Virus record (IMG/VR): IMGVR_UViG_3300005512_000040
Location: 1 to 57,231 of that record
Direction: 5' to 3' (one strand)
DNA: 57,231 nucleotides
DNA from: a virus
Lineage: Duplodnaviria > Caudoviricetes
In this document: positions 7,822 to 57,231 of the stretch, piece by piece
Layout: every line of letters starts with the position of its first letter
How positions within the stretch are numbered: the stretch's first letter is position 1
Program-made: the position numbers and the translations under genes
The notes under the pieces: generated by a model
The model's database searches: none
The model's input: the letters and a program-made list of their open reading frames with translations, nothing else
What the model was told of the DNA's origin: nothing

Positions 7822-7836
7822 GCTTTTTGACACACA

Positions 7837-9113: not shown

Positions 9114-9120
9114 TGGTTTT

Positions 9121-16860: not shown

Positions 16861-16934
16861 TGCGGGATAGTGTAGCGGCAGCACGCTGGGTTCATATCCC
16901 AGAGTCGGTAGTTCAAATCTACCTCCCGCAACCA
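16861..16934 (+). tRNA. tRNA-Met(CAT), initiator-like
   Basis: Full cloverleaf; anticodon arm CTGGG-TTCATAT-CCCAG with three G-C pairs; T arm GTTCAAAT; CCA end. Confidence 0.92.
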
Positions 16935-42205: not shown

Positions 42206-42254
42206 AACAACGACTCACCGACCAGACGTGCCGCTGGTCAGTTCGGTGTTGGCC
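42205..42254 (+). repeat. Unbulged 50-bp terminal site (attI position)
   Basis: AAACAAC-GACTC-ACCGACCAG-ACGTGCCG-CTGGTCAGT-TCGGT-GTTGGCC; homologous to the site at 44965. Confidence 0.7.
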
Positions 42255-42820
42255 TCTACCTCGTTGCCCCACACCGTCCAGCCGGGGCGGGCGCGGCGGG
42301 CGAACAGTTCAAGCCGTGGCCCGTCGCTCACCGTCTCGATCATGTCCTGAAAGAACTCCGGTTTCGTGCTGTGCGAGTTGTGCGGGCGTTTCACCTGCCA
42401 CCACGTCGAGTCCACGCGCCGCTTGCCTTGCGGCATCCGGCCCTTGCGCCCCAACAACAGGAACTCGCTCGTCGGGCAGAACAGCCCGCCTTGCCCCAGC
42501 CCTCGCGGTCGCTTGCACCAGGTCAACGCCTGGCAATACCGGAAGCCCCACGCCTGCATGACGCTGAAGGCTTCCGGCAGGTACTTCTGCGTTGTCCACA
42601 GGTACAGGTCGCAGTCATCAGCGGCGCATCCGGCAACCGGAAGCGCGGCAATCTCGGAAACCGGCATGGTCGGATAGGGCATGTCGTATTCGTGTCCGTT
42701 CGGTCTGCTTGCCGGAGTTGCGCGGCCCCACTTTCCGTATTGCCACGGCGGGTCTGCCACAATCGTCCGGAACCGACCGGAAGGCCAACCAAGAGGTGCA
42801 GCCGATTCGCTATCGCTCAC
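42215..42820 (-). CDS. MT-A70 family adenine methyltransferase, cassette-borne
   Basis: IVADPPW; YPTM; LYLWTT; WGFRY; HSTKP; RLELFAR...WGNE. Confidence 0.92.
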   Translation of the reverse strand: MSDSESAAPLGWPSGRFRTIVADPPWQYGKWGRATPASRPNGHEYDMPYPTMPVSEIAALPVAGCAADDCDLYLWTTQKYLPEAFSVMQAWGFRYCQALTWCKRPRGLGQGGLFCPTSEFLLLGRKGRMPQGKRRVDSTWWQVKRPHNSHSTKPEFFQDMIETVSDGPRLELFARRARPGWTVWGNEVEANTELTSGTSGR

Positions 42821-42841
42821 GGCTGACCTCCATCGTTCGGC
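42783..42841 (+). repeat. attC-like site (59 bp)
   Basis: GGCCAAC-CAAGA-GGTGCAGCCG...CGGCTGACC-TCCATC-GTTCGGC. Confidence 0.88.
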
Positions 42842-43095
42842 AACTCGTGAATACGCAGTGCCCACATACCATCGTCTCGCTCGTGCCACCTGCCAATGTT
42901 GATGCTCTGTCCGCCGTCGGTCTCGACCTCGACGAATCGGCCCGCTTCCGGCCCCGGAGGTCCATCGAAGACGATGTTGATTGCCGAGCAAGCGGATGGA
43001 GAACTACACGATGAAGGACGCAATCTGCATCCTCCCGGTCTCCCACATTCCGAACCCGTCCACTCCGTGCAATCGTTGTCGATGTCACACTTCAT
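42817..43095 (-). CDS. Cassette hypothetical protein
   Basis: Starts inside the attC at 42983; ...FDGPPGPEAGRFVEVE... Confidence 0.7.
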   Translation of the reverse strand: MKCDIDNDCTEWTGSECGRPGGCRLRPSSCSSPSACSAINIVFDGPPGPEAGRFVEVETDGGQSINIGRWHERDDGMWALRIHELPNDGGQP

Positions 43096-43121
43096 CGTGA
43101 GTCTCATCCTTTCCGTTAGCT
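42983..43121 (+). repeat. Long attC-like site (139 bp) with mutated R'' (AGC)
   Basis: GCCGAGC-AAGCG-GATGGAGAACT-ACACGATGAAG...CTTCATCGTG-AGTCTCATC-CTTTCC-GTTAGCT. Confidence 0.8.
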
Positions 43122-43375
43122 GCATACAAATGTTTCTCAAGTGATTCCCACTTGCAGGTACACGGCCCCTCTGCATCGTACCACTCATTGCACGGCTTAC
43201 AGTGATCACCGTAGAAAAGCAGCATTCGCACTAAGAGACGATTCTCTGCTTTGAGTTCGTCGATACTGCTAGCAGCCAACAACGGCTCGGACGGTACAGG
43301 AGAAACCGCGCTCAGGCAGTCCTCACAGAATCCGTCTTGCAAAGGTTTATTGTGAATCTTACACATCATCGTCAT
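43085..43375 (-). CDS. Cassette protein, Cys-rich
   Basis: RBS and start lie inside the attC at 43274. Confidence 0.7.
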   Translation of the reverse strand: MTMMCKIHNKPLQDGFCEDCLSAVSPVPSEPLLAASSIDELKAENRLLVRMLLFYGDHCKPCNEWYDAEGPCTCKWESLEKHLYAANGKDETHDEV

Positions 43376-43411
43376 GTCTGTTTCTCCTGCCCGTCAAGCC
43401 GAGCGTTCGGC
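43274..43411 (+). repeat. Long attC-like site (138 bp)
   Basis: AGCCAAC...GACGGTACAGGAGAAAC...GTTTCTCCTGCCCGTC...GTTCGGC. Confidence 0.8.
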
Positions 43412-43569
43412 ACTTCCGTCGATGTCGGATAGACGATTTCTGCCCCGCACTCTCTATCAGCGCACACCAAACGGTCATTATCCCAACCGCCGCCGTACAT
43501 CGAATGCATAATCTCACCGCAAATGTCACACGTCACCGGCGATTGCTTTGCCTTTTCAAACTGCGTCAT
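43372..43569 (-). CDS. Cassette Zn-ribbon protein
   Basis: CDIC...CADREC. Confidence 0.7.
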   Translation of the reverse strand: MTQFEKAKQSPVTCDICGEIMHSMYGGGWDNDRLVCADRECGAEIVYPTSTEVPNARLDGQEKQT

Positions 43570-43826
43570 GCGTCACCACCTGCCGAACAATCAGATTCGG
43601 CGGACGGAGTACCGCCGCTGATCTGCGCGTTGGCAACATCGGCCTTGCGGTCGAGCACCACAATGCACTCGTACTGCTGGACGTGGTATATGTCGCCATC
43701 GTCATGCCATACAACCCAAGCGTCACCCGTTGCACACGGGACGTGCTTGACTGTGCCTTCCAGCGTTTCGCCACCCGCCCAACACACCCGTACTCTGTCG
43801 CCCACTCTTGCGCCTGTATCAGCCAT
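43566..43826 (-). CDS. Cassette hypothetical protein
   Basis: GGAGG RBS; C-terminus encoded by the attC at 43582. Confidence 0.7.
   Translation of the reverse strand: MADTGARVGDRVRVCWAGGETLEGTVKHVPCATGDAWVVWHDDGDIYHVQQYECIVVLDRKADVANAQISGGTPSAESDCSAGGDA
43582..43635 (+). repeat. attC-like site (54 bp), near-identical to 46297
   Basis: GCCGAAC-AATCA-GATTCGGCGG-ACGGAGTACCG-CCGCTGATC-TGCGC-GTTGGCA. Confidence 0.88.
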
Positions 43827-43846
43827 TTTCGTATCCTCCATTCAGT

Positions 43847-43907
43847 TGCCAACAAAAGGCTTCAGCTTACGTCGCTATCGCGCCGAAGCTGAGCCTCGGC
43901 GTTCACA
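43847..43907 (+). repeat. attC-like site (61 bp)
   Basis: TGCCAAC-AAAAG-GCTTCAGCTT...AAGCTGAGC-CTCGGC-GTTCACA. Confidence 0.9.
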
Positions 43908-44125
43908 TTCAAGCCGCGTTGCAACCCCATATAGCGCGCCTTGTTTGTCACCGCTGACAGCCTCCTGCCTAGGTACTTCGCAAGCTCTTTAGCGGAAACC
44001 TTGCCGTAGTATTGCCGCATTACGGACTCGTCATTCTCCGTCCACGGCACGCTGCGAGGCTTCGTGGTCCTTATCAGTTCGTCAAGCTCTGGAACGCTCA
44101 CAACGCCGGATTGACAGCTTTTCAT
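43862..44125 (-). CDS. Small HTH/Myb-like protein
   Basis: WTENDE...ELAKYLGR..SAV..KARYMGL. Confidence 0.7.
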   Translation of the reverse strand: MKSCQSGVVSVPELDELIRTTKPRSVPWTENDESVMRQYYGKVSAKELAKYLGRRLSAVTNKARYMGLQRGLNVNAEAQLRRDSDVS

Positions 44126-44931
44126 AGCACCACCGCCTTTGCTTTCTGCGACTCAATCTTGACAGTTTCGGCATGCCAGTCGAACGCGCCATCGTCGGCA
44201 ACGTCAAACACCGTCACGCCCCAATCCACGAGGCCGGTGCATTGCCGCGCACCGTACTTCGTGCCCATCCCCTGCAATGCTGGCAGCGTCATTGCGACCC
44301 AACCAGGGCCACCGCAGAACGCGTGATAGTGGACGTGTCCGCGCAAAAACACGTTGGCGTCAGGCTGTAGCGCGTCCTCGTGGTTCCACAGGATGTTCCA
44401 CATGCGCTCCTTGGCGGTTGCTGTGTGGCGTCCGTGCGGGATCGTGCTGCTTCCGATCTTGTGTTTGAGGTCGAATACGCAGCCGTTTACGTCAACCCAC
44501 TCGTGAGCGCCAATCTTCTTGAATCCCGCACGCTCGGCAATGCGGTTCTCCCAATCCTCATCGTTGCCGGTATGGTATCCGGTGCCGTATACTCCGACCC
44601 ACTCAAAGCCGCGACGTGCATTGAGAAGCACGGCGTTAAGGCACTCAATCGCCATGTCTGACTGTTCCTCGCGGTCGGTCGTGATTAGCTCTGTGCCACC
44701 GCTCTTGCGTCCGGTGCCGTCGATTCCGTCGCCGACGTACAGCCCGAAGTGGAACGGACCAAGCTCGTCAATCATGCGCTTGTAATGGTCCCACAGCTGC
44801 CGTTGAAGACGCGCCCACTTGTTGTGTTTGGTTGTCGTGCCATTGACCTCTTTTGTCTGCCATGCGGGAGGCGTCAACCCGCAGGCGTGTCCACAGTGTA
44901 GGTCGCTTACTACAATTCCTCGTTTCTTCAT
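44122..44931 (-). CDS. Metallophosphoesterase
   Basis: SDLHCG, GDGIDG, GTGYH, KH, GHVH. Confidence 0.85.
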   Translation of the reverse strand: MKKRGIVVSDLHCGHACGLTPPAWQTKEVNGTTTKHNKWARLQRQLWDHYKRMIDELGPFHFGLYVGDGIDGTGRKSGGTELITTDREEQSDMAIECLNAVLLNARRGFEWVGVYGTGYHTGNDEDWENRIAERAGFKKIGAHEWVDVNGCVFDLKHKIGSSTIPHGRHTATAKERMWNILWNHEDALQPDANVFLRGHVHYHAFCGGPGWVAMTLPALQGMGTKYGARQCTGLVDWGVTVFDVADDGAFDWHAETVKIESQKAKAVVL

Positions 44932-44964
44932 ACTTGCGCCCCTTTCTCCGTTCGCTTTTCCTTC

Positions 44965-45014
44965 CGCCAACGATTCATTGACGGGACGTGCCGCCCGTCA
45001 ACTCGGTGTTGTGC
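44965..45014 (+). repeat. Unbulged 50-bp terminal site (attI position)
   Basis: CGCCAAC-GATTC-ATTGACGGG-ACGTGCCG-CCCGTCAAC-TCGGT-GTTGTGC. Confidence 0.7.
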
Positions 45015-45199
45015 CGCTTGTTGGGTTTACAAGACTCTCTGGCTTCAATGTCGAACTCAACGTCGAAGCGCACGGACTCACGCTTCTCCCATTCTTCGCG
45101 GTCAACCGACATATCACGGTATGCCTTCAGTAACCGTTGCAGGATCTTCAGGCTGTCCGTCGACAGTTCATCCACATCAACAATGATCTCGTTTTCCAT
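44975..45199 (-). CDS. Cassette hypothetical protein
   Basis: AAGGA RBS; MENEIIVD start. Confidence 0.65.
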   Translation of the reverse strand: MENEIIVDVDELSTDSLKILQRLLKAYRDMSVDREEWEKRESVRFDVEFDIEARESCKPNKRHNTELTGGTSRQ

Positions 45200-45226
45200 C
45201 TGGTTCCTTTCCTGCCTTGCCGGGAA

Positions 45227-45286
45227 ACCCAACAAGACAATTCACGCTATCGGCGTTCCGCCGAATCGTGATTGTTAGCGTTGTGC
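45227..45286 (+). repeat. attC-like site (60 bp)
   Basis: ACCCAAC-AAGAC-AATTCACG...CGTGATT-GTTAGC-GTTGTGC; loop homologous to the site at 6327. Confidence 0.85.
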
Positions 45287-46284
45287 GTCAAAGGCAACAG
45301 CCCCTGCCGCAGTTCGTTTTCCAGCCGCGCCCGCGCAGATTCAAACTCGCGCTCGTCCTTTTCCACGCCGACAAACCGCCGCCCGGTCTTGATGCACGCC
45401 AGCCCGGTCGTGCCCGACCCCATGAAGCAATCCAACACCGTATCGCCCGGATTGGTCGTTGTCTCGACGATTCTTTGCATGAGTTCCAATGGCTTCGGCG
45501 TGGCGTGCCCGTTGGCTTTCGCGGGCGGGTATTGCCATACGCTCGACACTTTGCCGGGGTTGTTGAACGTCGGGCGGAGATGTTCGTACTCGCGGCGCAG
45601 GTCGTCGTACTCGCGGCGCAGGTCGTCGTAAGTTCTCTTTAATGGTAGGATTTTCCCCAATTCCGAATAGAGTTGCTTGTCGCATAAATCCCACCGCCGC
45701 CCCTTATTCCACCCGATTTTATACGACGCATGAACACGGACGCTCTCTTCGGTGGTATAGCGCCCGTCTCGCCTAAACACAGCATGCACGTCCTCTTTTG
45801 TTCTTCCGCTCAAATCAAAGGCAGCAAGAAAATACTCTCGCAACGGGCGACAAATGGCGTTCTGATCTGTCCACTGCCCGTCGTCAGCGTGGTAGACGAT
45901 GTACTCGGCCAGCTTCGCGAATGAACGCAGTAGTGGGCTATCTCGCGCGGCATACAACTGCGAATGTGCTTGCTCTGGTGCGTATTTATCCCACGTCACC
46001 CAGTTTTGCATCGGTCGCCCGTGCCGCTCGATGATTCGCGCAATGTCGGCCAGCACCAGCGGCTCAGAGTGGAAACACCAGAACGCACCTTGCCGCTTGC
46101 ACCCCCTTGACGCCGCCGCAATCCACGACTCGCACCATTCGAGGTAGTTGGGTATCTTGTCCCATGCCGCCTTGCCAATGTTGTACGGCGGGTCAGTCAC
46201 AACGGCGTCGCACTCCACTGGTAGCACGTCTAGGCAGTCGCCACGGATGATGGTCACATCGTCAGATAGTTTTACCGCTTTCAT
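45247..46284 (-). CDS. N4/N6 DNA methyltransferase, cassette-borne
   Basis: TDPPY; HATPKP; LDCFMGSGTT; YDDLRRE heptad repeats. Confidence 0.92.
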   Translation of the reverse strand: MKAVKLSDDVTIIRGDCLDVLPVECDAVVTDPPYNIGKAAWDKIPNYLEWCESWIAAASRGCKRQGAFWCFHSEPLVLADIARIIERHGRPMQNWVTWDKYAPEQAHSQLYAARDSPLLRSFAKLAEYIVYHADDGQWTDQNAICRPLREYFLAAFDLSGRTKEDVHAVFRRDGRYTTEESVRVHASYKIGWNKGRRWDLCDKQLYSELGKILPLKRTYDDLRREYDDLRREYEHLRPTFNNPGKVSSVWQYPPAKANGHATPKPLELMQRIVETTTNPGDTVLDCFMGSGTTGLACIKTGRRFVGVEKDEREFESARARLENELRQGLLPLTHNANNHDSAERR

Positions 46285-46286
46285 GA

Positions 46287-46778
46287 TCAATCCCTCGCAC
46301 AACAATCAGATTCAGCGGACGGAGTACCGCCGCTGATCTGGGCGTTCGCAACATCGCACGGCTTCCCGCACTCGGTACACTCGTGCCAGCGCGTTACGTT
46401 GCCGCGCACGACAACAGGCGCGTGACAGCAGGTGGAGGACTTGCCATCAATGCAGATTGCCGCACTTGCGTCCCAACCCTTGCGCGCCGTAACGTCGTTC
46501 AGCCACGCAACAAGCTCGTCTACGCTCTTGATTACCACAGCCTGACCGCGCCACGCCTCGTGCCACTCAACCTGCAACTCGTTCAGTTTCGACTTGCTCG
46601 GGCACTTGCTGCCGTCCTTTACTTCAACCAGGTAGTTGCGCCCGCTGTGCCCGACCAGCAAGTCGGGCACACCAGCACCGACAGCCTTAAGGTCGCACAC
46701 CGTCGCACCAACCTTGCGCAGTACGTCCACAATCTGCTTGTGATTGGCGTCTGGTTTGCCGTACTTCCTTGCGTTCAC
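46287..46778 (-). CDS. VRR-NUC-like nuclease with Cys-rich C-terminal extension
   Basis: DANHKQIV..LR..G...GVPDLLVG...LVEVKDG. Confidence 0.85.
   Translation of the reverse strand: MNARKYGKPDANHKQIVDVLRKVGATVCDLKAVGAGVPDLLVGHSGRNYLVEVKDGSKCPSKSKLNELQVEWHEAWRGQAVVIKSVDELVAWLNDVTARKGWDASAAICIDGKSSTCCHAPVVVRGNVTRWHECTECGKPCDVANAQISGGTPSAESDCCARD
46297..46350 (+). repeat. attC-like site (54 bp)
   Basis: GCACAAC-AATCA-GATTCAGCGG-ACGGAGTACCG-CCGCTGATC-TGGGC-GTTCGCA. Confidence 0.88.
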
Positions 46779-46978
46779 AGCACCCCTCCCAGCACCAGCG
46801 CGAGCATGATTGCCGCAAGTAGCGCCGCCAACTCAACGCGGCGTATGCGGTTGTCTTCGCGCTCCTTGGTCGTGTTTGACCACGTATCGGCTGGGCAGTT
46901 CGCGCACCGCAGCCGTCCGGTCGGGTCTGCCATGTGCCAATCGTGCAGTCCTATGCGGCACTTGAGCGGCGTTTTCAT
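46775..46978 (-). CDS. Small protein with C-terminal TM
   Basis: CRIGLHDW...CANC; hydrophobic end. Confidence 0.6.
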   Translation of the reverse strand: MKTPLKCRIGLHDWHMADPTGRLRCANCPADTWSNTTKEREDNRIRRVELAALLAAIMLALVLGGVL

Positions 46979-47391
46979 GCGGCGTCCTCCACATCGTCAA
47001 GCGGCTGTACGGTGTAGTCTGCGCGCTTGCTTCGTGTCGTTGTCAGTTTCAGGCTCAGCGGTTCGTCAATGCCGCTTACGTGCGATATGCGGATGCCGCC
47101 TACCTCGACGCCGCCGAACTTCACGGTCGGATCGCCGTACAACGTCATGCGTTGCCCTACCCAATCCTTGCCCTTGTCGCCCCATGCCGCAATCAGGACG
47201 CGGCGCATAGACTTGCACGGTCTGAATACGCGGTCCATTTCTGCCAGCACCACGTCAACGGGCTGCTCTGCCGCGCCTTGTCTGAGCGTGCTGACCGTCA
47301 CTGTCAACGGCGCTTTTGCCACGTCGTCAAAGTTCAACTGATCCGACTTGGGCCGAATCGTGTCTCTCAGGCTCATTGCTTTCTCGGTCAT
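46975..47391 (-). CDS. Conserved phage recombination-module protein (KSDQLN..DD type)
   Basis: PKSDQLNFDD...PCKSMRRVL...WG...GGIRISH; adjacent to the exonuclease. Confidence 0.7.
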   Translation of the reverse strand: MTEKAMSLRDTIRPKSDQLNFDDVAKAPLTVTVSTLRQGAAEQPVDVVLAEMDRVFRPCKSMRRVLIAAWGDKGKDWVGQRMTLYGDPTVKFGGVEVGGIRISHVSGIDEPLSLKLTTTRSKRADYTVQPLDDVEDAA

Positions 47392-48200
47392 GTCAACCCC
47401 TCCATGTTCACTGTTGCATCCTCCCCGCCGCAAGCCCACGACGGCAGCGCGTAGTCCTCTATCATTTCGGTCACGCCGGGAAACGAACCGGCAGCCTCGC
47501 AAGCCCTGTAACGCGCCGCAATCTCTATTGCCTCGTCACGCCCCTGCTCAAGTATTGGGAACGGCACGCGGTACACAGAGCAGTCATACGGTGGGTCTTG
47601 CTCAATGGCAATGACGTGGAACGGCAGCGATCCGTCACCCGTTGCGAGTCGTGCGCCCGTCCAGTACCATCCGAACTGCAAATGGTATCCCATGTTGTAG
47701 CACGTCCGCTCAAACGCGCTAGGCGCAATCTGCTTGGTGGTCTTCACGTCGAACAGGCCAACGCGCTTGTCGAACCCGTCAAAGCGCGCCTTGCCTTTGC
47801 CGTACCGCTTGCCCTCCCAATAGCAACTTACCTCGTGCTCGCTGTTGGCTATCAGGTGGTGTGCGTCGTGGTTTGCGTGTACCGCAGCCGAAATCTCAAA
47901 CAGAGCGGCGTGCGTGTCGCTTGTGACAATCCACTCTGGATCGTGCGACACCGCTGCGTCCTTGTACTGCTTTGAGTTGCGCGGCGCGTCGAGCACAAGC
48001 AACTGACCGGACAGCAATTTCGGCTCAAGTATCGCCGCGTGTATCAGCGTTCCGAGTTTCATTGCTGGTGACTGCGGTTTGCGTGGGCCAACAATGGCGT
48101 GGCGCATGTGCTTCATTGACTTGACGCCAGCCTTGATTGCCGTCGCGCTCATACCTGGCGCGCGTATGTACTCGTCAAACGGTATTCCTGCCTGCATCAT
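47388..48200 (-). CDS. RecE/ExoVIII-like PD-(D/E)xK exonuclease (DUF3799-like)
   Basis: LGTLIHAAILEP...KARFD...DVKTT...YHLQFGWY. Confidence 0.85.
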   Translation of the reverse strand: MMQAGIPFDEYIRAPGMSATAIKAGVKSMKHMRHAIVGPRKPQSPAMKLGTLIHAAILEPKLLSGQLLVLDAPRNSKQYKDAAVSHDPEWIVTSDTHAALFEISAAVHANHDAHHLIANSEHEVSCYWEGKRYGKGKARFDGFDKRVGLFDVKTTKQIAPSAFERTCYNMGYHLQFGWYWTGARLATGDGSLPFHVIAIEQDPPYDCSVYRVPFPILEQGRDEAIEIAARYRACEAAGSFPGVTEMIEDYALPSWACGGEDATVNMEGLT

Positions 48201-48223
48201 GCTTCCGCGCCTCCCTCCGCGCC

Positions 48224-48493
48224 TCACTCCGTGCTTTCAATCCTATCGTCGCCGCTCTCGTGCCTATCCCACATTACGTCCTCGCTGTCAAGCTCGCGCC
48301 AGTTCGTGCGCCTGTGCGCACCAGTACCGATTGACGACCAGCCAGACTCCGGCGTGGCTTCTACACGCGCTCCCCAACGCTTGTTGTTGCGAGCCTCGGT
48401 CACTCTGCACGCCTTGCGGTTGCAGTATCGCGCGAATGTCTCCGTGATAAACCGCCGTCCGCAGTGCTGGCATGTGACGTGTCGCATTATCAT
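48224..48493 (-). CDS. Zn-finger hypothetical protein
   Basis: CQHCG..F.....YCNRKAC. Confidence 0.65.
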   Translation of the reverse strand: MIMRHVTCQHCGRRFITETFARYCNRKACRVTEARNNKRWGARVEATPESGWSSIGTGAHRRTNWRELDSEDVMWDRHESGDDRIESTE

Positions 48494-48497
48494 AGCC

Positions 48498-48689
48498 CTA
48501 CCGCCTCCCGCTCTTGGTTGGGTCTTCCGCGCCCCATGTCTGTATTGTCGTCAGCGGCGCGTGATCGCCCATGTGCTCAATGGCCGACTCCGCGATGTCG
48601 GCAATCTGCTCGCACCTGTCGTCTGCGTCTGTGTCGTGGTCGCATGCGAGCGAGTAAATGTCAACGATGCACTGGTCTAGGTTTGCCAT
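48498..48689 (-). CDS. Hypothetical protein
   Basis: AAGGA RBS, downstream of the attC at 48718. Confidence 0.6.
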   Translation of the reverse strand: MANLDQCIVDIYSLACDHDTDADDRCEQIADIAESAIEHMGDHAPLTTIQTWGAEDPTKSGRR

Positions 48690-48717
48690 TGTGTTCCTTT
48701 CCTCTTAGCGGACAGTT

Positions 48718-48788
48718 GCCGAACCAGCGGATGGACAACTACCTTCATTCGCTGCGCTCATTTCGGAGTGTCATCCTTTCCGTTCCAC
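48718..48788 (+). repeat. Solitary attC-like site (71 bp)
   Basis: GCCGAAC-CAGCG-GATGGACAACT...AGTGTCATC-CTTTCC-GTTCCAC; arms homologous to the site at 42983. Confidence 0.8.
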
Positions 48789-49021
48789 CCGTGCAGCACC
48801 TTTGCCGCGACGGTCTGCACGTCGAACCGCAGCTTGGCCACGCGGTCGGTTTCGTCGATGGTGCATGGCGCGGCGATGGCACGCACGTCAATCATTACGT
48901 CGCCAACGTCGAGCGGTATGCAACACGCAACGCCCTTGCTGCCGTCAAACCTCTTGAACTCGAATGGCTTTCCTCGGTGCAGCCTGTTGCCAGCCTCGAC
49001 CATTTTGTTTGCGTCAGTCAT
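48758..49021 (-). CDS. Hypothetical protein
   Basis: AGGAGG RBS; ends inside the attC (WNGKDDTPK). Confidence 0.6.
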   Translation of the reverse strand: MTDANKMVEAGNRLHRGKPFEFKRFDGSKGVACCIPLDVGDVMIDVRAIAAPCTIDETDRVAKLRFDVQTVAAKVLHGWNGKDDTPK

Positions 49022-49126
49022 TTGGTTGTCCCTCCTGTCAACATGCGCAAACCATAGCACAACTGGCCGCCCGTGCAAGCGAAAAGTTTGCCGAAAATCA
49101 CGACGAAAAAAAATGCAGAAAGGGGG

Positions 49127-49156
49127 TTGACAACATGCAGCGGCGTGGGCTATTGT
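49127..49156 (+). promoter_or_regulatory. Sigma70-like promoter in the divergent control region
   Basis: A-tract, then TTGACA-N18-TATTGT. Confidence 0.55.
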
Positions 49157-49567
49157 TCGCGTGTCGACTGGGAGAAGCAGCAAGGAGGAGGCACCATGAG
49201 CACGACCGCAGAAAACAAGCAACAGCATCCTCCCGAGTGGGTGGAGCGCGCCATATTCGTTCTTGCGTTTGTCGGCGCGGTCTGGTGGGTTTGCGAAGTG
49301 GCGGCGCGTATGTTCGTGCCGTGGAACTGACGAGGGAGGATTGGTGTGGCAAACACTAGGAGGACCGACCATGCGACGGCTAATCCGAAAAGCAATACAG
49401 TGGTTCGAGATGGCGAGGGGCCTATGGTATCTCGCAAACCTGCCAACAGGCGAGTGGGAGTGCGCGGACGGCAGCACGCCAGAGGGCGCGTACAGGGGAA
49501 AGCAGTGCGGGGATGTGTGAGAACGCTGGCATTGAGCGGACAATGAAGCCGCAGAAGGAGGACTGAC

Positions 49568-49825
49568 GTGGACAACAACGATGGCGCGGCTTCATTGGTA
49601 CGCTCGGATGCTTTGTTGGGCTCCCTGTTCGACGGAGCGGCATACGTCGGCATTCACAAGAACGCAGCAGGGCGCATCACGCTTGTCGTCAATCACGGCG
49701 ACGGCTCCATGCGGACCTCGTGCAGCAAGAAGGGCCTCAGCTACGCGGACAAGCTGATTGAGTGCCGCAACCGTTTGTCCGAGACGCCCAACGCCGGGAG
49801 TCACCGGCAGGAGGAAGCGCGATGA
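49568..49825 (+). CDS. Cassette hypothetical protein
   Basis: AGGAGG and GTG inside the attC at 49518. Confidence 0.65.
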   Translation: MDNNDGAASLVRSDALLGSLFDGAAYVGIHKNAAGRITLVVNHGDGSMRTSCSKKGLSYADKLIECRNRLSETPNAGSHRQEEAR

Positions 49826-50103
49826 GGGAATGGGTTTGCAAACGATGTGGAACGTTCAACAGAGGAGTCCCGCGTTGCGAGAGATGTTGCGCGCTTCCTC
49901 CTGTACGGTCGGACTCCTTGTTCGATGTCCTGGTGGCTATTGTCAACACGGCGCAGACATGCCCCGACCGCTGCATGGCTGACGTGTGCAACGACAACTT
50001 CGCCGTGCATGGCGTGAACCTTCGGGCCGAGATGACCGACAACGAGGACGCGCCGGTCAGGATCGAGAGGACATCGAACGACAGCAATGAGCGGCAGCTT
50101 TAG
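49822..50103 (+). CDS. Cassette protein with N-terminal Zn-ribbon
   Basis: WVCKRCG...CERC encoded in the attC loop. Confidence 0.7.
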   Translation: MREWVCKRCGTFNRGVPRCERCCALPPVRSDSLFDVLVAIVNTAQTCPDRCMADVCNDNFAVHGVNLRAEMTDNEDAPVRIERTSNDSNERQL

Positions 50104-50157
50104 CTGTACGCTCCATTGGCCTTGTTGGGCAATCCCAGCGAGGCCGGAAAGGACAAG

Positions 50158-50451
50158 ATGAGACTGAGACGACAGATTAGACGGATGATGAGCCCGGTTG
50201 ATATTCTCCAATTCAGCCAGTTTACGATCGACTGGTTACAAGAGTTAGACGAGGCTGACGCGCACGGCGATACGACCGGCGACGAGCAGACTGACAACCT
50301 CGCCCTTGCCTACGAAATCGACACGATCCGCGAAGTCTTGCGCTACGGCAGCGACAAGGCGCTGTTCGATATGATGGCGGCATACGCACGGATCTGTATG
50401 CCCAACGATGATCCTCACGTTTCCGACGTGAGCACAGCGAACAAAGGATAA
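50158..50451 (+). CDS. Cassette hypothetical protein
   Basis: Ends PNDDPHVSDVSTANKG inside the attC. Confidence 0.65.
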   Translation: MRLRRQIRRMMSPVDILQFSQFTIDWLQELDEADAHGDTTGDEQTDNLALAYEIDTIREVLRYGSDKALFDMMAAYARICMPNDDPHVSDVSTANKG

Positions 50452-50606
50452 CGTGGAGGATTTTGTTGTGTGTCCGCGATGCGAAGAATGGAGCTTGCCA
50501 ATGTGCCTGATACGGACAACAGATGACGCATTGGTTGGCATGGGAATATCCGTAGCCCATGCATCGGGTGTGACTCCCGGCGCGGACTCCTTTTGTATAC
50601 ACAACG
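50400..50606. repeat. Duplicated cassette, copy 1
   Basis: 207 bp identical to 51502-51708 except one base seen (50408/51510). Confidence 0.95.
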
Positions 50607-50644
50607 TCCGGCCTGACGCGCCGGGCGAGAAAGGTGCGACATGA
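50453..50644 (+). CDS. Cassette peptide, copy 1
   Basis: GTG start inside the attC; CPRC motif. Confidence 0.6.
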   Translation: MEDFVVCPRCEEWSLPMCLIRTTDDALVGMGISVAHASGVTPGADSFCIHNVRPDAPGEKGAT

Positions 50645-50982
50645 CCAAGGCGGCTATACCCGGTCGCGTCGAGGCCGTTGTTCTCCACCTGGTTCTGACG
50701 CACCATTGGTTCGACGAGATGATCGCCGGCCGCAAGTGGACCGAGTACCGCAAGGTTACGCCACACTGGACGCGGCTGATATGGGACCGCCGCGACAAGA
50801 TCACGCACGCCCGGTTCAGCCGGGGCTACACGGCGCAGCGGATCATCCGCCGCGTGGAGCAGATCACGATAGGCCCGTGCCCCTACGACGGGTGGCCGGG
50901 GCAATACTACCGCATAGACCTCGGGGAGGTCCGTGTGGAGAACGACCGTCTTCACGGTCGAGGAAAGAGCGATAGCGAATGA
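50641..50982 (+). CDS. ASCH/PUA-like domain protein, paralogue 1
   Basis: LHLVL..HWFDEMIAGRKWTEYR...FSRGY. Confidence 0.8.
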   Translation: MTKAAIPGRVEAVVLHLVLTHHWFDEMIAGRKWTEYRKVTPHWTRLIWDRRDKITHARFSRGYTAQRIIRRVEQITIGPCPYDGWPGQYYRIDLGEVRVENDRLHGRGKSDSE

Positions 50983-51188
50983 CGAGTACCGTGCAAGACT
51001 TGGTTGTGCCCCTGTGGCCGTCCCGTTGCTTCTGGGGCTTCTGCCGGCACGAGATTCGCAAAGGTCTTATGTTTCGCTACTGGATCACGCTTCCGGCGAT
51101 CTGGCAGCGCGAACTGCAATTCCGCCGCGAGCTGACAGAGTGTTTGAATGGGCACAACGATTTGAATGAGGGGCGCAATGAAGGATAA
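50979..51188 (+). CDS. Cassette hypothetical protein
   Basis: ATGA-coupled inside the attC at 50937. Confidence 0.6.
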   Translation: MTSTVQDLVVPLWPSRCFWGFCRHEIRKGLMFRYWITLPAIWQRELQFRRELTECLNGHNDLNEGRNEG

Positions 51189-51313
51189 ATGTTCCGCCAA
51201 TGCTGATGAACAAGCCATGGGCTTGAGGCAGGACGGTCGGTCAGTTGACCAGCCTTCATTGCGTACCCTCCATTCTCTTGTTGGGCATCCAAATCAATGA
51301 AAGGAACACGACC

Positions 51314-51553
51314 ATGCTGATTACGATTCCACTGAGACGAACGTATCTTGTACTGAGCACCTGCAACCGATTCCTGCACGTCTACCTGTCGCGTAACGCT
51401 ACGCCGTGGCATCACTCCCGCGTCAGCCTGTGGGGGCGGCGCAAATACAACCGCTACGCAGCGCACGTCGGGGACGACGGTTGCTGCTGCGAATCCTGTA
51501 AGCCCAACGCTGATCCTCACGTTTCCGACGTGAGCACAGCGAACAAAGGATAA
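51314..51553 (+). CDS. Cassette hypothetical protein
   Basis: AAGGA RBS; ends PNADPHVSDVSTANKG. Confidence 0.6.
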   Translation: MLITIPLRRTYLVLSTCNRFLHVYLSRNATPWHHSRVSLWGRRKYNRYAAHVGDDGCCCESCKPNADPHVSDVSTANKG

Positions 51554-51708
51554 CGTGGAGGATTTTGTTGTGTGTCCGCGATGCGAAGAATGGAGCTTGC
51601 CAATGTGCCTGATACGGACAACAGATGACGCATTGGTTGGCATGGGAATATCCGTAGCCCATGCATCGGGTGTGACTCCCGGCGCGGACTCCTTTTGTAT
51701 ACACAACG
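51502..51708. repeat. Duplicated cassette, copy 2 (ORF 51555-51728)
   Basis: See copy 1. Confidence 0.95.
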
Positions 51709-51724
51709 CGGAGGTGACTGGACG

Positions 51725-52045
51725 ATGAGAGCGACAGCGAACAGCGGTACAGTCCACCGTCTTGTTCTCCACCTTGTCCTCACGGGAAGGTGGTTTGACA
51801 TGATGATGGGCGGTGTCAAAGACGTTGAGTATCGGGCAATCACGGAGCACTGGACGCGGTTGATTTGGAATCGCCGCGACAGGATCACACACGCCCGCTT
51901 TGCACGCGGGTACACGAAGGAAACCATCTTGCGTCCAGTGCGTCGCATCGACATTGGATCGTGTCCGTATGACGGATGGGATGGCGATTACTACAGGATT
52001 CACATGCCACCGATACAGGTGGAGAACGATGGGCGTCAGCCTTGA
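51725..52045 (+). CDS. ASCH/PUA-like domain protein, paralogue 2
   Basis: LHLVLTGRWFDMMMGGVKDVEYR...FARGY. Confidence 0.8.
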   Translation: MRATANSGTVHRLVLHLVLTGRWFDMMMGGVKDVEYRAITEHWTRLIWNRRDRITHARFARGYTKETILRPVRRIDIGSCPYDGWDGDYYRIHMPPIQVENDGRQP

Positions 52046-52104
52046 GCGAATAGCGAATAGGCTGGACGCCTTTGTTGGGCGGCCGGTCAGAAAGGGAAAC
52101 AACG

Positions 52105-52350
52105 ATGAAACTGTGCAAAGACTGCAAATGGCGTGACGGACACAGGTGCGTTGCGCCGCAAAACTCTTCCGGAGTTGACCCGGTTGACGGCGGCAAGGCG
52201 TCTGGATGGATTATGACGTGCCAGGCGCAACGCACTGGAACGTTTACGGGGTGGTTTTGGTGCCGCGTAACAAGGCTGTGCGGGAAAGAGGCTAGATGGT
52301 TCACGCCCAACGTAGCGCTCACGAGCGCCGACGAAGGAGGCGTATCGTGA
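52105..52350 (+). CDS. Cassette Cys-rich protein
   Basis: MKLCKDCKW...C...CGKEARWF. Confidence 0.7.
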   Translation: MKLCKDCKWRDGHRCVAPQNSSGVDPVDGGKASGWIMTCQAQRTGTFTGWFWCRVTRLCGKEARWFTPNVALTSADEGGVS

Positions 52351-52544
52351 AGCGCATGGTTGTGCGTCTGCTTTGCCGCCACGACTGGCGCGAACATACC
52401 GTTCTCGGAGTTGGGGATCACGAGTTTTCCGATCTACGCTCTTGCACCAAATGCACGGCCAGCAAGCTCTTGTTTTCTGGCACGCGGAAACAGTGGAGAC
52501 AACATCACGGCTACGATACGCACAACATTGCAATATCGAGTTAG
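52347..52544 (+). CDS. Cassette small Zn-binding protein
   Basis: AGGAGG and GTG inside the attC at 52305; LCRHDW...CTKC. Confidence 0.65.
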   Translation: MKRMVVRLLCRHDWREHTVLGVGDHEFSDLRSCTKCTASKLLFSGTRKQWRQHHGYDTHNIAISS

Positions 52545-52607
52545 GTTTCTTGCTGAACATGCGCAACCATCTACACGGCAACAGGCTACATAGAATGAGA
52601 GGGCAAC

Positions 52608-53501
52608 ATGGGAGATAAGGCACACGTGACGAATGGCGGCGGGAGGCCCTGGCGCATCCTTCTGGACGTGGACGGGGTACTGGCTGACTTCTACGGCGGG
52701 GCGTGCAGGGTGCACGGGGTTTCCAGGGAATCGCTCCCGGTGGGCCAGTGGGAGATGAGGCACGGTATGGGCATAAGTGAAGCTGCCTTCTGGGAGCCGC
52801 TGGACAACTACGACTTCTGGGTGGGGCTGCAAAAATACCCGTGGGCCGATAGTCTTGTGGCCTGCATGAAAACGGTTGCGGACGTGACGTTCTGCACCAC
52901 GCCATCCGTATCGTCGGACTGCCACAAGGCTAAGATGGACTGGATTCGTAAGCACTTCGGGGATGACGCCAAGGTGATGCTTGGCTCGCAGAAGTATCTC
53001 ATGGCCGCTCCGCGCCACATCCTGATTGATGACTACCACGCCAACGTGGACAAGTTCATTGCCGAGGGCGGCAAGGCCATCCTGTTTCCGGCCAGATGGA
53101 ACAAGTTACATGCAGTCCAAAAAGACAATGTTGATCACACCATCGACATCCTGAGTGCCATCATACAGGAATCCACGACCCCGCCCCCAATTTTCCCCGA
53201 GGGGGCGAGCGAGCGGCATGAATACCCTGTGTTCACGGGCCTGCTGGCTTATTTCCCGAGGGCCTGCGCGGCGGTGGCGAACGTGAGTTTCATTGGAAAT
53301 GAGCAGCATCAGCCGGGAGAGCCCATGCACTGGGCCAAGGAAAAGAGCATCGGCACAGGGGACCAGGTGGTCAGGCATACCATGCAAGGGGTGCTGGAGG
53401 GGTCCGCGTATCATTTGGCGCAGGCCGCTTGGCGGGCACTGGAACTGCTGGAGCGCAAGCTGTGCGGGATGCCGCCGTTCGGGGATCAACGTAGTGTTTG
53501 A
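52608..53501 (+). CDS. HAD 5'(3')-deoxyribonucleotidase-like domain fused to a DUF5664-like (dATP/dGTP diphosphohydrolase-like) domain
   Basis: LDVDGVLADF...CTTP...K..W...LIDD; then FPRA..AVA.VS..GN.QH.PG...W...RH...HLAQAAWRAL. Confidence 0.78.
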   Translation: MGDKAHVTNGGGRPWRILLDVDGVLADFYGGACRVHGVSRESLPVGQWEMRHGMGISEAAFWEPLDNYDFWVGLQKYPWADSLVACMKTVADVTFCTTPSVSSDCHKAKMDWIRKHFGDDAKVMLGSQKYLMAAPRHILIDDYHANVDKFIAEGGKAILFPARWNKLHAVQKDNVDHTIDILSAIIQESTTPPPIFPEGASERHEYPVFTGLLAYFPRACAAVANVSFIGNEQHQPGEPMHWAKEKSIGTGDQVVRHTMQGVLEGSAYHLAQAAWRALELLERKLCGMPPFGDQRSV

Positions 53502-53526
53502 CACTTGTTATACACTTGTGTACGGT
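53498..53526 (+). promoter_or_regulatory. Promoter with tandem ACACTTGT operator-like repeat
   Basis: TTGACA-N17-TACGGT; ACACTTGT twice within it. Confidence 0.6.
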
Positions 53527-53534
53527 GATTAGTC

Positions 53535-53717
53535 ATGGCGCAAAGAGAACTACTGACTGTCCGCGTGGACCCGCTGGTCCGCGCCCTGATTGAGAAGCAG
53601 GCCAAAAAGCTTGAGGGCAGTATGGGGTACATCGTCGAGTGCATGGCAATGCGCATGTTCGAGGCAGAACTACCCCCAGGCTACAGGCCGGGAAGGAGGT
53701 TGATAGACAATGACTAA
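53535..53717 (+). CDS. Ribbon-helix-helix-like regulator
   Basis: LTVRVDP....IEKQAK....SMGYIVE. Confidence 0.6.
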   Translation: MAQRELLTVRVDPLVRALIEKQAKKLEGSMGYIVECMAMRMFEAELPPGYRPGRRLIDND

Positions 53718-53912
53718 CCCCGCCACCCGACACGAGGGCTACCCCCTCCCCCGCCCCCCCGTCACGCTATACGGTGAGCACCAGCACCAGATTGAGTCGG
53801 TGCTGATTGGGCTTCTGGACAGGCACCCGGATGAGGGGGAAGCGGTGGACAGGATAAGGCGGGTAATGATCGAGCAAGTTCCTATGGACTTTAACCCCAC
53901 AAAGGAGGTATA

Positions 53913-54359
53913 ATGAGCAGCAAGTTCACAGAGTCCGAACTACGAGCGGCCCTAGCCGAGACCGGGGGAAACATGTCGGCAGCAGCCCGAATACTCGGGT
54001 GCGCCAAGAGTACGGTGCAGAAGGCCGTGGGGCGACACCCGGATTCCAAAGCGGAAAGGAGGGCGCACGTTGTACAAGAGCCAAGTGGTCCAGACATCAA
54101 GGTGGCGGCGGCTACGGGTGGCTTCAATCTCAAGGGGAAGACCCTGATGGCGAAAAAACCAACCGATGTGTGGGGGCCACGATTTAACGCACTGCGGACG
54201 GAAACTGGATACCCGCCTGATGTTCTTGCGAAGCAGTGGGGCGCATCCCTAGAGACTGTCAGAAAAAAGGCACGGGATGCCGGGGCGGTTAGATACACGG
54301 AACAGGATGGGCAGTACATCGAGGTGATTGTCCATCCCAAAACGAGAGGTGGAAAATGA
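53913..54359 (+). CDS. HTH (Fis-like) protein
   Basis: ALAETGGNMSAAARILGCAKSTV. Confidence 0.75.
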   Translation: MSSKFTESELRAALAETGGNMSAAARILGCAKSTVQKAVGRHPDSKAERRAHVVQEPSGPDIKVAAATGGFNLKGKTLMAKKPTDVWGPRFNALRTETGYPPDVLAKQWGASLETVRKKARDAGAVRYTEQDGQYIEVIVHPKTRGGK

Positions 54360-55375
54360 GTACGGACAGAAACGGAGACGGGACAGTAGACCTAAGCGGA
54401 CAGCACGTCACAGACGACGTGGCTATGGAGAAGGTTATTGCGGCTCAGGCCAAGGTGAACGCGCTCAAGCGGGAGGTGTCGGCGCTACGGAAGGACCGGG
54501 AGCTGTTGCTCGCTGAGTACACGGACATTCAGAACGCGCGTTCCGTCCCGAAGAATCCGGAATCGGCCCGCACCAAAGCCACAGCAGACAAGGTGCGCGT
54601 ATCGTTCGGCGATATGCACGGCATGCGGATGGACCGTGCCGCTATGGACGCGCTCGTGCGCGACCTGAAAGTACTGGACCCAGACGAGATTGTGCTGGGC
54701 GGCGACATGGCGGAATGCGGCGGCTGGCTGGCAAAGCACCAGCCCATCGGTTTCATCGCCCTGTTGGACTACTCGTATCAGGAAGACGTGGCGGCGACAA
54801 ACTGGGCCTTGGACGCTATCCAGAAGGCCGCGCCAAATGCAACCATAGACTATGCTGAGGGACAGCACGAAGATAGGGTGGAACGGTGGATCGTGGATCA
54901 GGTCACGGCCAACGCCCGCGACGCCGAGTTCCTGCGGTCCCTGTGCTCGCTACAAACGCTGTTGCGGCTGGAGGATCGCGGGATCAAGTATTATCGCCGG
55001 ACGGAAGTGTATGGCGAAGGGTTGCCGCGCGGATGGTTCAAGAAGGACAACATGCACTTTGTGCATGAGCTTGGCACCAGCAAGAACGCTGCACGTGCCG
55101 CCGTATCCGATGCGGCCGGGAATGTGACGTACTTCCATACTCATCGCCGCGACACATCAGTGCGTGTGTTCCCCGGCGTCGGGATGTGCGAGGCCAGCAA
55201 CCCCGGCTGCCTGTGTGTGATGCAGCCTGTGTGGCAGAACAGCAACGTCACCGACTGGTCGCAGGGCTACCAGATTGAGTTCATCAGCAAGGGCGGTAAC
55301 TATCTCGTAGTCCATGTCCCGATCTGGAAGGGAAAATCCCTCGCCGGGGCGATGGTCGAGCGGTTCAAGTCGTAA
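54356..55375 (+). CDS. Metallophosphoesterase with N-terminal coiled coil
   Basis: GDMHG, GGDMAE, EGQHE, FVH, FHTHR, NPGCLC. Confidence 0.85.
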   Translation: MSTDRNGDGTVDLSGQHVTDDVAMEKVIAAQAKVNALKREVSALRKDRELLLAEYTDIQNARSVPKNPESARTKATADKVRVSFGDMHGMRMDRAAMDALVRDLKVLDPDEIVLGGDMAECGGWLAKHQPIGFIALLDYSYQEDVAATNWALDAIQKAAPNATIDYAEGQHEDRVERWIVDQVTANARDAEFLRSLCSLQTLLRLEDRGIKYYRRTEVYGEGLPRGWFKKDNMHFVHELGTSKNAARAAVSDAAGNVTYFHTHRRDTSVRVFPGVGMCEASNPGCLCVMQPVWQNSNVTDWSQGYQIEFISKGGNYLVVHVPIWKGKSLAGAMVERFKS

Positions 55376-55676
55376 TCGCGCCACCCGCTACGAGGACTCT
55401 AGACGCCCCTCACAGGCCCTACAAGGCCCTAGAGGGGCACAGCAAGGGGGAAGACATGGGAACGGACTTCAACGACCTCTGGCGGAGCTTCTGCGAGAAG
55501 AACCCGAAGATCCTCACCGGCGACCCCGTGGCCATCCGGCCCGAGCGGCTGTGTGCCTTCGGGAGGATGTTCTATAACCGTGGGCTACGGCAGGGGCGCA
55601 GGGAGGGGGTACGCCCCCCGGCAGGACAGGGGGACACGGTGGACTGGTTGAGGGGGGCTATGGGGATGGGGGGGGT

Positions 55677-56048
55677 ATGACCGATAAACAGGAAGAAGTT
55701 GCCCACTTCATTCGTCTGATCCGGGGCATCTCCCCGCAGTACCTGCGCTACGCCTGTACGCACGGCGGGTGCTATCGTTTCTGGCTGATCCTGAAGGACC
55801 GCTTCCCGTCGGCGCGCCTATACTTCACCCGCTACGACGGCGGTGGGCATTGCGTTGCGAAGATCGCGGGGATGTTCTGGGACATTTGGGGGGAACACGA
55901 CCCCAAGACGGATGGCGCGGTGCGGCTGCCGAAGGGGAAGCGGGAGGTGGAGAGGATGTCGTCGTGCGTCTTCGACGAGGGGTTTGTGCTGGTGAACCCG
56001 CACGTGATTCGAGAGAACGAAATCAGGAAGCCGCAGGAGGCACAATGA
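55677..56048 (+). CDS. Hypothetical protein
   Basis: GGCYRF..ILK..FP......HCV......WDIWG motif. Confidence 0.65.
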   Translation: MTDKQEEVAHFIRLIRGISPQYLRYACTHGGCYRFWLILKDRFPSARLYFTRYDGGGHCVAKIAGMFWDIWGEHDPKTDGAVRLPKGKREVERMSSCVFDEGFVLVNPHVIRENEIRKPQEAQ

Positions 56049-56250
56049 TAACCTACTGGATAGCGGCCAAGCGTCCCATGTGCAGCAAGACCTGGACCCT
56101 GCACCCCGAAGTGGTGATCTCGCGCACCCGACACACGGCCAGTGACAAACTCTCCCACCTCGTCTCCCCCCCCGGCATAATCTGGGCTCTGGCCGTCTGT
56201 CACGTGCCCGAGAACGGGGAGGACGAGGCCCTGCTGGAGAGGGGGGCGGA

Positions 56251-56466
56251 ATGAAACCACTGCGCGTGACATACGCCTCCGGCATGGTGAACATCGGCAG
56301 CGACGACATCTCCTTCGGCTACATCCCCGGCATGTACACCGGAGGCCGTGCGGGGATGGGGCTACAGATAGACCGACACATAGACCGTGCGGCCTGTGAA
56401 CGGATGTGTGTACGGATCGCGGAGGCTGTGGTGGAGTTTGCGTCAAAGAAGAAGGGGGCAGAATGA
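56251..56466 (+). CDS. Hypothetical protein
   Basis: Translationally coupled ORF. Confidence 0.5.
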   Translation: MKPLRVTYASGMVNIGSDDISFGYIPGMYTGGRAGMGLQIDRHIDRAACERMCVRIAEAVVEFASKKKGAE

Positions 56467-56928
56467 TTTCGGCGGGAAGGCAGCGAGGGCACCACGTCAC
56501 TAAGGCGTACGTGCCGGGTCCGGCGTATTTAGCGCGGCGTAGCGGGGCTCATGCTCCCGTCCGTGCGAGTCGGCGCGGGGGTAGCCCCGTGGAGCATCCG
56601 AGGCTGGGAATACCCGGCTGAGTAGAAGGCAAGAGCATGGCATAAGGTGAGCGACCTGGCCCTTCCCGCCCCTTTTCGAGCAACGCGACATGAGGACAAG
56701 GAGGCAAGGCATGAGGACGAGGATATGTGTACATAGGGCAGCGCGAGTGGACGATACGGACGAGGACATTGAGCACTACCTGACGTGCGGTCAGATCCCG
56801 CGTTTCGGCTTCTGCTGGTGGTTCTGGATACCGTATATCAAGGCAGCCCGTATGGGCGGGGACGGGTTCGACGTGACGGTGTTCTGGCTGTGTTGGTTCG
56901 TGTCCGTCTACAGGGAGGGAAGCGGGCG

Positions 56929-57177
56929 ATGAGAAACGCACTCTCATGGGCGGCCATCTGGCTGGTGGTACTGGTTCTCGGCTTCGGGATGTGGAAGTTC
57001 CAGCGGTGGGCGCACTGGCGGTTCTTCTACAGCGGCAAGGTGGAGGGCAGGATCGAGGCCCTTGAGGCCCGCGTGGGGGCACTGGAGGCCGCGCCACCCG
57101 TCACTAGGCAATATCCCCCCCCTACAAGCCCCCTCACACCCCCTACAGGCCCCTATCCCCACGCAGGGTATAGGTAG
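56929..57177 (+). CDS. Small TM + coiled-coil protein
   Basis: Hydrophobic N-terminus; RIEALEARVGALE. Confidence 0.5.
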   Translation: MRNALSWAAIWLVVLVLGFGMWKFQRWAHWRFFYSGKVEGRIEALEARVGALEAAPPVTRQYPPPTSPLTPPTGPYPHAGYR

Positions 57178-57231
57178 GGGTGGGTAGAGGCCGGGGAAGG
57201 CCCTGGGGGGGGCGACCGGGGGACGCGGCCC

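Follow-up and report, generated by a model that had tools for sequence, protein, structure and literature searches.

How can genes that carry no stop codon of their own give properly terminated proteins in an array whose parts can be exchanged? The classic example of modular gene exchange is the integron cassette, whose expression at any position is usually credited to one promoter and to genes that are self-contained. The genes considered here are not self-contained. They form a cluster of small plus-strand genes at positions 49518-52526 of IMG/VR virus record IMGVR_UViG_3300005512_000040 (Duplodnaviria; Caudoviricetes), which was analysed over its whole linear length of 57,231 bases (hereafter the window; estimated completeness about 70%) and which is the genome of a temperate phage with at least three arrays of sites of the type of attC, the recombination site of integron cassettes. 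The target array contains 11 attC hairpin sites and one lone core box. The stop codon of a gene, and often the handover to the next start codon, is borrowed from the recombination site of the neighbouring cassette, and this works only because nearly all cassettes are left in the same frame. A first-pass annotation of the sequence had proposed that most cassette genes run into the next site, read the AAC of its core box as asparagine and then meet a stop, and that this fixed frame would allow any cassette to follow any other. Its observations were confirmed here, and its interpretation was borne out in part. We assign a probability of about 0.6 to the reading that the locus is an inverted attC cluster without an integrase, in which a shared exit frame and borrowed stops give properly terminated proteins in any cassette order.

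Exit frame and borrowed stops at the cassette junctions

All 11 genes of the target array that reach a core box run into the site of the neighbouring cassette, read the core AAC as Asn, and end 6-15 codons later inside that site. The peptide tails quoted in the first-pass annotation (NAGSHRQ, NDSNERQ, NDDPHVS, NVRPDAP, NDRLHGR, NDLNEGR, NDGRQP, and NVALTSA) were all found at junctions, and so were those quoted for other arrays (NDQAHAS, NAEGQFS, NGKDETH, NARLDGQ, and NANNHDS). The check which it had named, a table of frames against an expectation of 1/3, was drawn up for 63 hits of a covariance model of the sites (described below), of which 26 are located in the window and 37 in related metagenome contigs (loci designated L0xx). 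The latter were retrieved via a 113-residue protein family comprising the product of gene 50641-50982, its paralogue 51725-52045, and 67 homologues; L006, L011, L024, L025, and L041 were removed before counting, being duplicates of the window or of one another. The set was curated by hand with the help of a codon log-likelihood trained on the long genes of the window and a three-frame reading of doubtful cases. Read-through with AAC as a codon was observed at 40 of the 63 sites, two of them weak. Seven genes end on a TAA formed by the box and five on another stop of their own, seven sites were left unclassified (contig ends or no clear gene), and two further boxes are degenerate. Among the read-through genes with an intact AAC, 40 of 41 are in the Asn frame (binomial test against 1/3, p = 2.3e-18), or 38 of 39 when counted by clusters of upstream sequence. 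The distribution is non-random, and the fixed frame at the core AAC holds in the larger set as it does in the array. A cruder rule, which takes the longest open frame, placed 33 genes in the AAC frame and five and one in the other two; the codon score contradicts this rule for five of the six dissenters (weakly at 51152; one of the five is the 113-residue family gene itself), and the sixth is the unclassified site at 5088. As a control, genes starting inside a site were found to read the GTT of the 3' box in all three phases (4:2:2), so that the frame lock belongs to the 5' box and not to the box sequence as such.

The claim that a stop follows in the frame of the AAC was likewise borne out: this frame is closed within 25 codons at 56 of 58 sites, compared to 44 and 34 of 58 in the other two frames, and at 51 of the 58 the stop is located inside the site. 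At all 12 sites whose upstream gene has a stop of its own, an unused in-frame stop is still present at a distance of 2-25 codons. The stops in the window are situated 2 to 33 codons past the box and are formed by differing stop codons. Each of the five overlaps between a stop and the next start that had been listed (49822, 50641, 50979, 51725, and 52347) is present, corresponding to five of the 11 junctions of the array. In the window as a whole, such ATGA or GTGA overlaps occur at nine junctions, including that at 52347, and at four more, two of which are the duplicate pair described below, the stop lies 1-2 bases ahead of the start. The next start is located inside the site at about 10 of the 26 window sites.

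Shuffling at the junction point, which had been proposed as well, is supported by homology breakpoints. A 213-nt duplicate (50394-50606 and 51496-51708, 99% identical) extends between two consecutive AAC boxes. Identity between the paralogues 50641-50982 and 51725-52045 is 60% as far as the Asn, past which their sequences are unrelated, many of the 67 homologues end in Asn and an unrelated tail, and six homologues are identical in sequence up to the Asn and then continue into six different, unrelated tails. Homology begins or ends at AAC(G) in 12 site pairs, two of which share the upstream gene and have unrelated sites, while ten have similar sites and unrelated upstream sequences. The gene upstream of site S5 (designations as in Table 1) is also present in L007, where it is followed by a different site, and S2 is 93% identical to a site of L008 that has a different upstream gene. 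Within the 113-residue family (17 cassettes), the identity of the attC sites tracks that of the downstream genes (rho 0.57, 136 pairs) and is unrelated to that of the preceding 60 nt (rho -0.10, 91 pairs for which upstream sequence is available), the pairs in these comparisons not being independent of each other.

Structure and inverted orientation of the attC-type sites

Judged by their predicted structure, the sites at 49518-52526 are integron-type attC sites, as the first-pass annotation had assumed: the core boxes, the paired arms, the bulges, and the match of the covariance model to canonical attC sites agree. The sites start with four variable bases and AAC and end with GTT and four variable bases. 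The variable bases are not always RYYY (e.g., GGAG), and because of such deviations from the consensus a strict RYYYAAC...GTTRRRY scan missed sites. No consensus fold emerged when 15 sites of differing length were aligned with MAFFT; covariance model 1 was built instead from a plain MAFFT alignment of seven sites of similar length (16 pairs, 9 of the 16 with a compensatory change), and model 2 was rebuilt from 32 hits. In the alignment of these 32 sites, itself fitted to the model, none of the 32 departs from AAC and GTT. Standard pairs occupy 90% of the pair cells (39-46% in controls with slid partners), and compensatory changes on both sides are seen in 10 of the 11 inner pairs. The bulged bases are located on the 3' arm of the modelled strand, and the 3' box of each cassette is complementary to the box at the end of that cassette. 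With filters off, model 2 detected 24 window sites at E < 0.001, which together with those at 49786-49926 (E 0.018) and 16608-16687 (E 0.027) give the 26 sites mentioned above; all 26 share the strand of the local genes, and the other strand gave no hit. The 11 full sites of the target array were all recovered (E 7e-14 to 0.018). With 11 sites in 3 kb and two further arrays, the genome contains what has been termed a cluster of attC sites lacking integron integrase (CALIN), i.e., at least two close attC sites with no integron integrase nearby.

Two further observations concern sites with long loops or of divergent sequence. The minus-strand gene 43085-43375 also ends in Asn and a tail, at a box near 43100 that was missed by both models, so that long-loop or divergent sites are under-counted. 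The loop of the long site S1 varies between relatives, since its 64 bases at 49826-49889 are replaced by 28-29 different ones in contigs from three further metagenome runs.

The first-pass annotation overlooked the orientation of the cassettes which, to judge from the strand recognised by the models, are inverted relative to canonical integron cassettes. On plasmid R46, model 1 detected the aadA1 and orfD sites opposite to the cassette genes (25.3 and 21.4 bits), and the gene strand scored 5.9 bits. In TJE1, a phage with an attC cluster known from the literature, model 2 again found all three sites opposite to the genes, and near the integron integrase genes of 16 chromosomal regions all of its 68 hits were on the expected bottom strand; the one chromosomal region that was examined in detail has real-looking genes on the strand opposite to the hits. 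In the phage set, model strand and gene strand coincide without exception (26 of 26 window sites, 37 of 37 related hits), and this strand bears the three DNA methylases, the DUF6551 gene, and the 67-member family. The canonical organisation, with the gene on the top strand and attC downstream of the gene, is not the one observed here. What is the bottom strand in canonical sites is thus the coding strand in the phage. According to the part of the paper by Qi et al. (2023, PMC9892861) covered here, crossover takes place between G and TT on the top strand, which on the bottom strand corresponds to the position between AA and C of the 5' box. In the phage this position coincides with the 3' end of each gene, so that each attC belongs to the gene after it. 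By analogy with canonical attC sites, the crossover would fall inside the Asn codon, and it is because of the inversion that a frame rule becomes necessary.

A phage cassette is accordingly composed, in this order, of the C, the attC hairpin, the 3' box, the gene, and bases 1-6 of the next 5' box. Most genes are devoid of their own stop; the AA and the C of the neighbour are read as Asn, and the reading frame ends on a stop inside the attC of the neighbour, often at or next to the start codon of the neighbour. With one exit frame, and with nearly every attC closing that frame, any order of cassettes would be properly terminated. Where stop and start overlap, translation would be coupled through the hairpin, which is presumably opened for the next gene by the ribosomes of the upstream gene. 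An integron integrase, probably that of the host, would move the cassettes, and selection for compatibility would maintain the frame rule.

Table 1 Features of the target array (sites S0 to S10) and of other parts of the window that are discussed in the text
Feature	Position	Strand	Remarks
Sigma-70-like promoter site	49127-49156	+	10/12 hexamer matches, consensus match only; upstream of the rightward operon holding the target array
Gene upstream of S0	49371-49520	+	Ends on TGA formed by box bases 1-3
S0, 104 nt	49518-49621	+	30.5 bits; start of gene 49568-49825 in the loop
S1, 141 nt	49786-49926	+	18.6 bits, E 0.018; crossed in AAC frame by gene 49568-49825; ATGA overlaps start of 49822-50103
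S2	50073-50130	+	Crossed in AAC frame by gene 49822-50103; next gene 50158-50451 begins past 3' box
S3	50400-50471	+	Model hit; 5' end of duplicated cassette with gene 50453-50644
S4	50599-50686	+	Model hit; crossed by gene 50453-50644; ATGA overlaps start of 50641-50982 (113-residue family)
S5	50937-51009	+	Model hit; crossed by gene 50641-50982; ATGA overlaps start of 50979-51188
S6, 135 nt	51152-51286	+	35.9 bits; crossed by gene 50979-51188; next gene 51314-51553
S7, second copy of S3	51502-51573	+	Model hit; crossed by gene 51314-51553; next gene 51555-51728
S8	51701-51770	+	Model hit; crossed by gene 51555-51728; ATGA overlaps start of 51725-52045 (paralogue of 50641-50982)
S9	52021-52080	+	66.3 bits; crossed by gene 51725-52045; next gene 52105-52350
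S10	52305-52365	+	Model hit; crossed by gene 52105-52350; GTGA overlaps start of 52347-52544
Lone 5'-type core box, array end	52520-52526	+	No hairpin behind, not a model hit; complementary to 3' box 52359-52365
First array	112-7618	+	Sites 112-248, 399-471, 5088-5148, 6020-6075, 6327-6386, 6599-6657, 7363-7411; lone box 7612-7618
Cargo of first array	5200-6018; 6677-7375	+	ParB-like DUF6551 gene; DNA methylase
Leftward operon array	42783-48788	-	Sites 48718-48788, 46297-46350, 45227-45286, 43847-43907, 43582-43635, 43274-43411, 42783-42841
Cargo of leftward operon	45247-46305; 42215-42809	-	DNA methylases
Weak isolated site	16608-16687	+	E 0.027; follows gene 16065-16613, which ends on box-formed TAA
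Phage tyrosine recombinase, Xer-like	8043-9149	-	29 bits against integron integrase cut-off of 265; gaps opposite the extra domain of IntI1

Competing explanations and known systems

Several observations weigh against an inverted cluster governed by a frame rule. Read-through in another phase possibly occurs at one site (L022 3813), and at another (L014 660) it is found at a box mutated to GAC. By script assignment, the next start is located past the 3' box at 15 of the 26 window sites, at 12 of them with a motif resembling a ribosome-binding site (RBS), so that melting of the hairpin is unneeded there; two of these assignments were corrected by reading and cancel each other out (the start is inside the site at 52305 and after the box at 51152). 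In L018 (293-345), the AAC frame is without a stop and the gene of the 113-residue family is extended by 61 codons into the next cassette; by its sequence, this extension is apparently a natural fusion of the kind that the frame rule would otherwise prevent. Neither the window nor any of the related loci yielded an integron integrase in a tblastn search. Finally, the attC sites of the pool are related to each other, so that some of the stops are inherited rather than independently kept, and canonical cassettes show a bias towards the same frame.

The last two points are also those on which a neutral explanation can be built. According to this ratchet, the attC family carries a stop in one frame by descent; genes that leave in that frame lose their own stop harmlessly, and the others cannot. 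The bias of canonical cassettes was estimated with 73 sites (68 chromosomal, three of TJE1, and two of R46) and a crude longest-frame rule, which is error-prone and mis-assigns at least the annotated orf1 of TJE1; the control rests on this rule because a criterion based on the G+C contents of third and first codon positions (GC3-GC1) could not tell coding frames from antisense ones in host cassettes of low bias. In this set, 37 genes have their own stop before the box, eight end on a box TAA, and five sites are without a gene; by the same crude count, the 23 read-through genes are distributed over the three phases as 13, 4, and 6, leaning to the frame seen in the phage. Canonical cassettes need no frame rule and yet lean the same way, and compatibility may therefore not be the sole cause of the bias. 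The seven genes that end on a box-formed TAA, which are those in the other common phase, fit the ratchet as well. The canonical phase is less uniform than that of the phage set, and the box is crossed by 23 of 68 classifiable canonical genes compared to 41 of 53 genes here (Fisher p = 3e-6). Against the ratchet, the scattered positions and differing codons show that the window stops do not descend from a single one, closure within 25 codons is commonest in the AAC frame, and overlaps of stop and start recur at nine window junctions. We consider the ratchet unlikely as an explanation of the frame, although it deserves to be kept in mind.

An origin of the arrays without any integrase is more doubtful still. 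The hairpins would then be conserved boundary or terminator-like elements serving homologous recombination, and the fixed frame would result from the gene ends being part of the element. Such a reshuffling of genes by homologous recombination has been proposed for the promoter-stem-loop elements in T4-type phages. The lack of a detectable integron integrase mentioned above would fit, and so would contigs of four other DNA runs, which contain pieces with ends clustered at both boxes, mostly short and 90-99% alike; the one long joint in these contigs that skips a segment has only 22 bases on one side and is a hint only. This proposal does not account for the geometry of box, spacer, bulge, and stem that the sites have in common with canonical attC, nor for the fact that a phage-built model finds the sites of R46 and TJE1, and 68 beside integron integrases, each time on the correct strand, and the breakpoints at AAC(G) show no shared flank on one side. 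An annotation artefact, in which the real genes are on the other strand and the read-through frames are antisense open frames of G+C-rich DNA, could draw on the long spurious open frames on the bottom strand of canonical host arrays, but is barely credible in view of the three DNA methylases, the DUF6551 gene, and the 67 homologues on the model strand, the positive codon scores, and the RBS-like motifs before most starts.

CALIN have been described in phage genomes and, as here, consist of attC arrays without integron integrase that carry DNA methyltransferase genes (Qi et al. 2023, PMC9892861); phage attC sites were shown to be recombined by IntI1 in the same work. The genes of TJE1 lie opposite to the attC bottom strand, whereas those of the window share a strand with it at every site. 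Reading frame, stop-less genes, and starts inside sites are not discussed in the part of PMC9892861 considered here, and its supplementary tables may hold inverted cases. With canonical integron cassettes (class 1 of R46; chromosomal), the phage cassettes share the 7-base boxes with invariant AAC and GTT, the paired arms, the bulges on one arm, the exchange at the core box, and a variable loop of 49-141 nt. They differ from them in the reversed orientation of the gene, in the position of attC before the gene, and in that about three quarters of the genes (41/53) cross the junction; moreover, neither an integrase nor an attI was identified here. Two mechanisms known from integrons are related to the borrowed stops. 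ORF-11 and ORF-18 of attI1 in class 1 integrons span the crossover, are closed in phase by a stop which the inserted cassette provides in its core site or leader, and drive the translation of this cassette by coupling (PMC8876359, as far as this source was covered). In that case one short leader peptide at attI is concerned, whereas in the phage the proteins encoded by the cassettes are affected, at nearly all junctions of the array. Short ORFs inside attC are held to relieve the block that the hairpin imposes on translation (Jacquier et al. 2009, as summarised in the part of PMC8876359 covered); these are separate small ORFs in canonical orientation, unlike the extended end of the upstream gene observed here. 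A literature search, with the supplements of PMC9892861 outside its scope, yielded no paper on inverted cassettes in phages or on a rule for their frame. Clusters of attC sites in phages, the methylases among their cargo, and recombination by IntI1 are known, and inverted, mostly stop-less cassettes with one exit frame appear to be new.

If the frame rule in the inverted cluster is selected, it would represent a coding convention common to a mobile gene pool. It would also suggest that phages make active use of integron-type recombination with a cassette layout of their own, beyond carrying bacterial cassettes. Somewhat more speculatively, phages might possess their own pool of attC-first, stop-less cassettes with one frame convention, in which integrase-driven shuffling results in a terminated and coupled polycistron and early genes such as anti-restriction methylases are swapped; we regard this as a tentative idea. 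If it is true, such phages would have a built-in syntax for building operons from interchangeable parts.

Integrase, host, and genome context

The Xer-like phage recombinase 8043-9149, the sole tyrosine recombinase of the window, was considered as an integron integrase and ruled out by its score and by the missing stretch of the extra domain (Table 1); tblastn gave a single further hit, a weak one in L052 (49 bits, 178 residues aligned at 30% identity). Just downstream of the recombinase gene, a tRNA-like 3' fragment is present at 7700-7850. It fits an attP for integration into a tRNA gene, as expected if the recombinase is like a lysogeny integrase; only 21-27 bases of this stretch were matched, in three of 401 genomes. 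These 401 genomes represent the phylum of one metagenome-assembled genome (MAG; G001) that contains a homologue of the 113-residue family gene. Integron integrases above the cut-off are present in 116 of the 401, often several per genome, and beside them the phage-built attC model detected up to 15 sites in 20 kb. A host integron integrase is a plausible mover of the cassettes. The target array and the first array each end in a lone box (52520-52526 and 7612-7618), as expected of an insertion point, and no attI was recognised; gene 52347-52544 crosses the lone box in frame and has its stop six codons on.

The first-pass annotation had envisaged expression of the cassettes from the phage operon promoter. 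The promoter-like site at 49127-49156 is the only one in 48600-52800, with none inside the target array, and lies in the intergenic region from which the leftward array and the target array diverge; among RNA runs, none was listed as containing 49100-52600. Terminator-like sites in the target array are no commoner than in shuffles, and a suspected repeat flanking it (near 49040 and 52556) was not recovered by a repeat search. The cassette cargo includes three DNA methyltransferases, two with an N6_N4_Mtase and one with an MT-A70 domain, and most other cassette genes lack a Pfam match. A megablast search of 44000-57231 against phage records gave no match, and single-protein searches for related loci gave three loci without sites, or nothing; attC sites are absent from four MAG loci with A5-family homologues.

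Upstream of site 5088-5148 in the first array (4971-5193), the frame with a good start and RBS (4971-5120) differs from the frame that crosses the AAC, and the latter contains a Cys-rich, zinc-ribbon-like stretch; this conflict may be due to a frameshift or an assembly error. The weak isolated site at 16608-16687 is found near a tRNA-Met gene (16861-16934) in the part of the genome that carries the structural genes.

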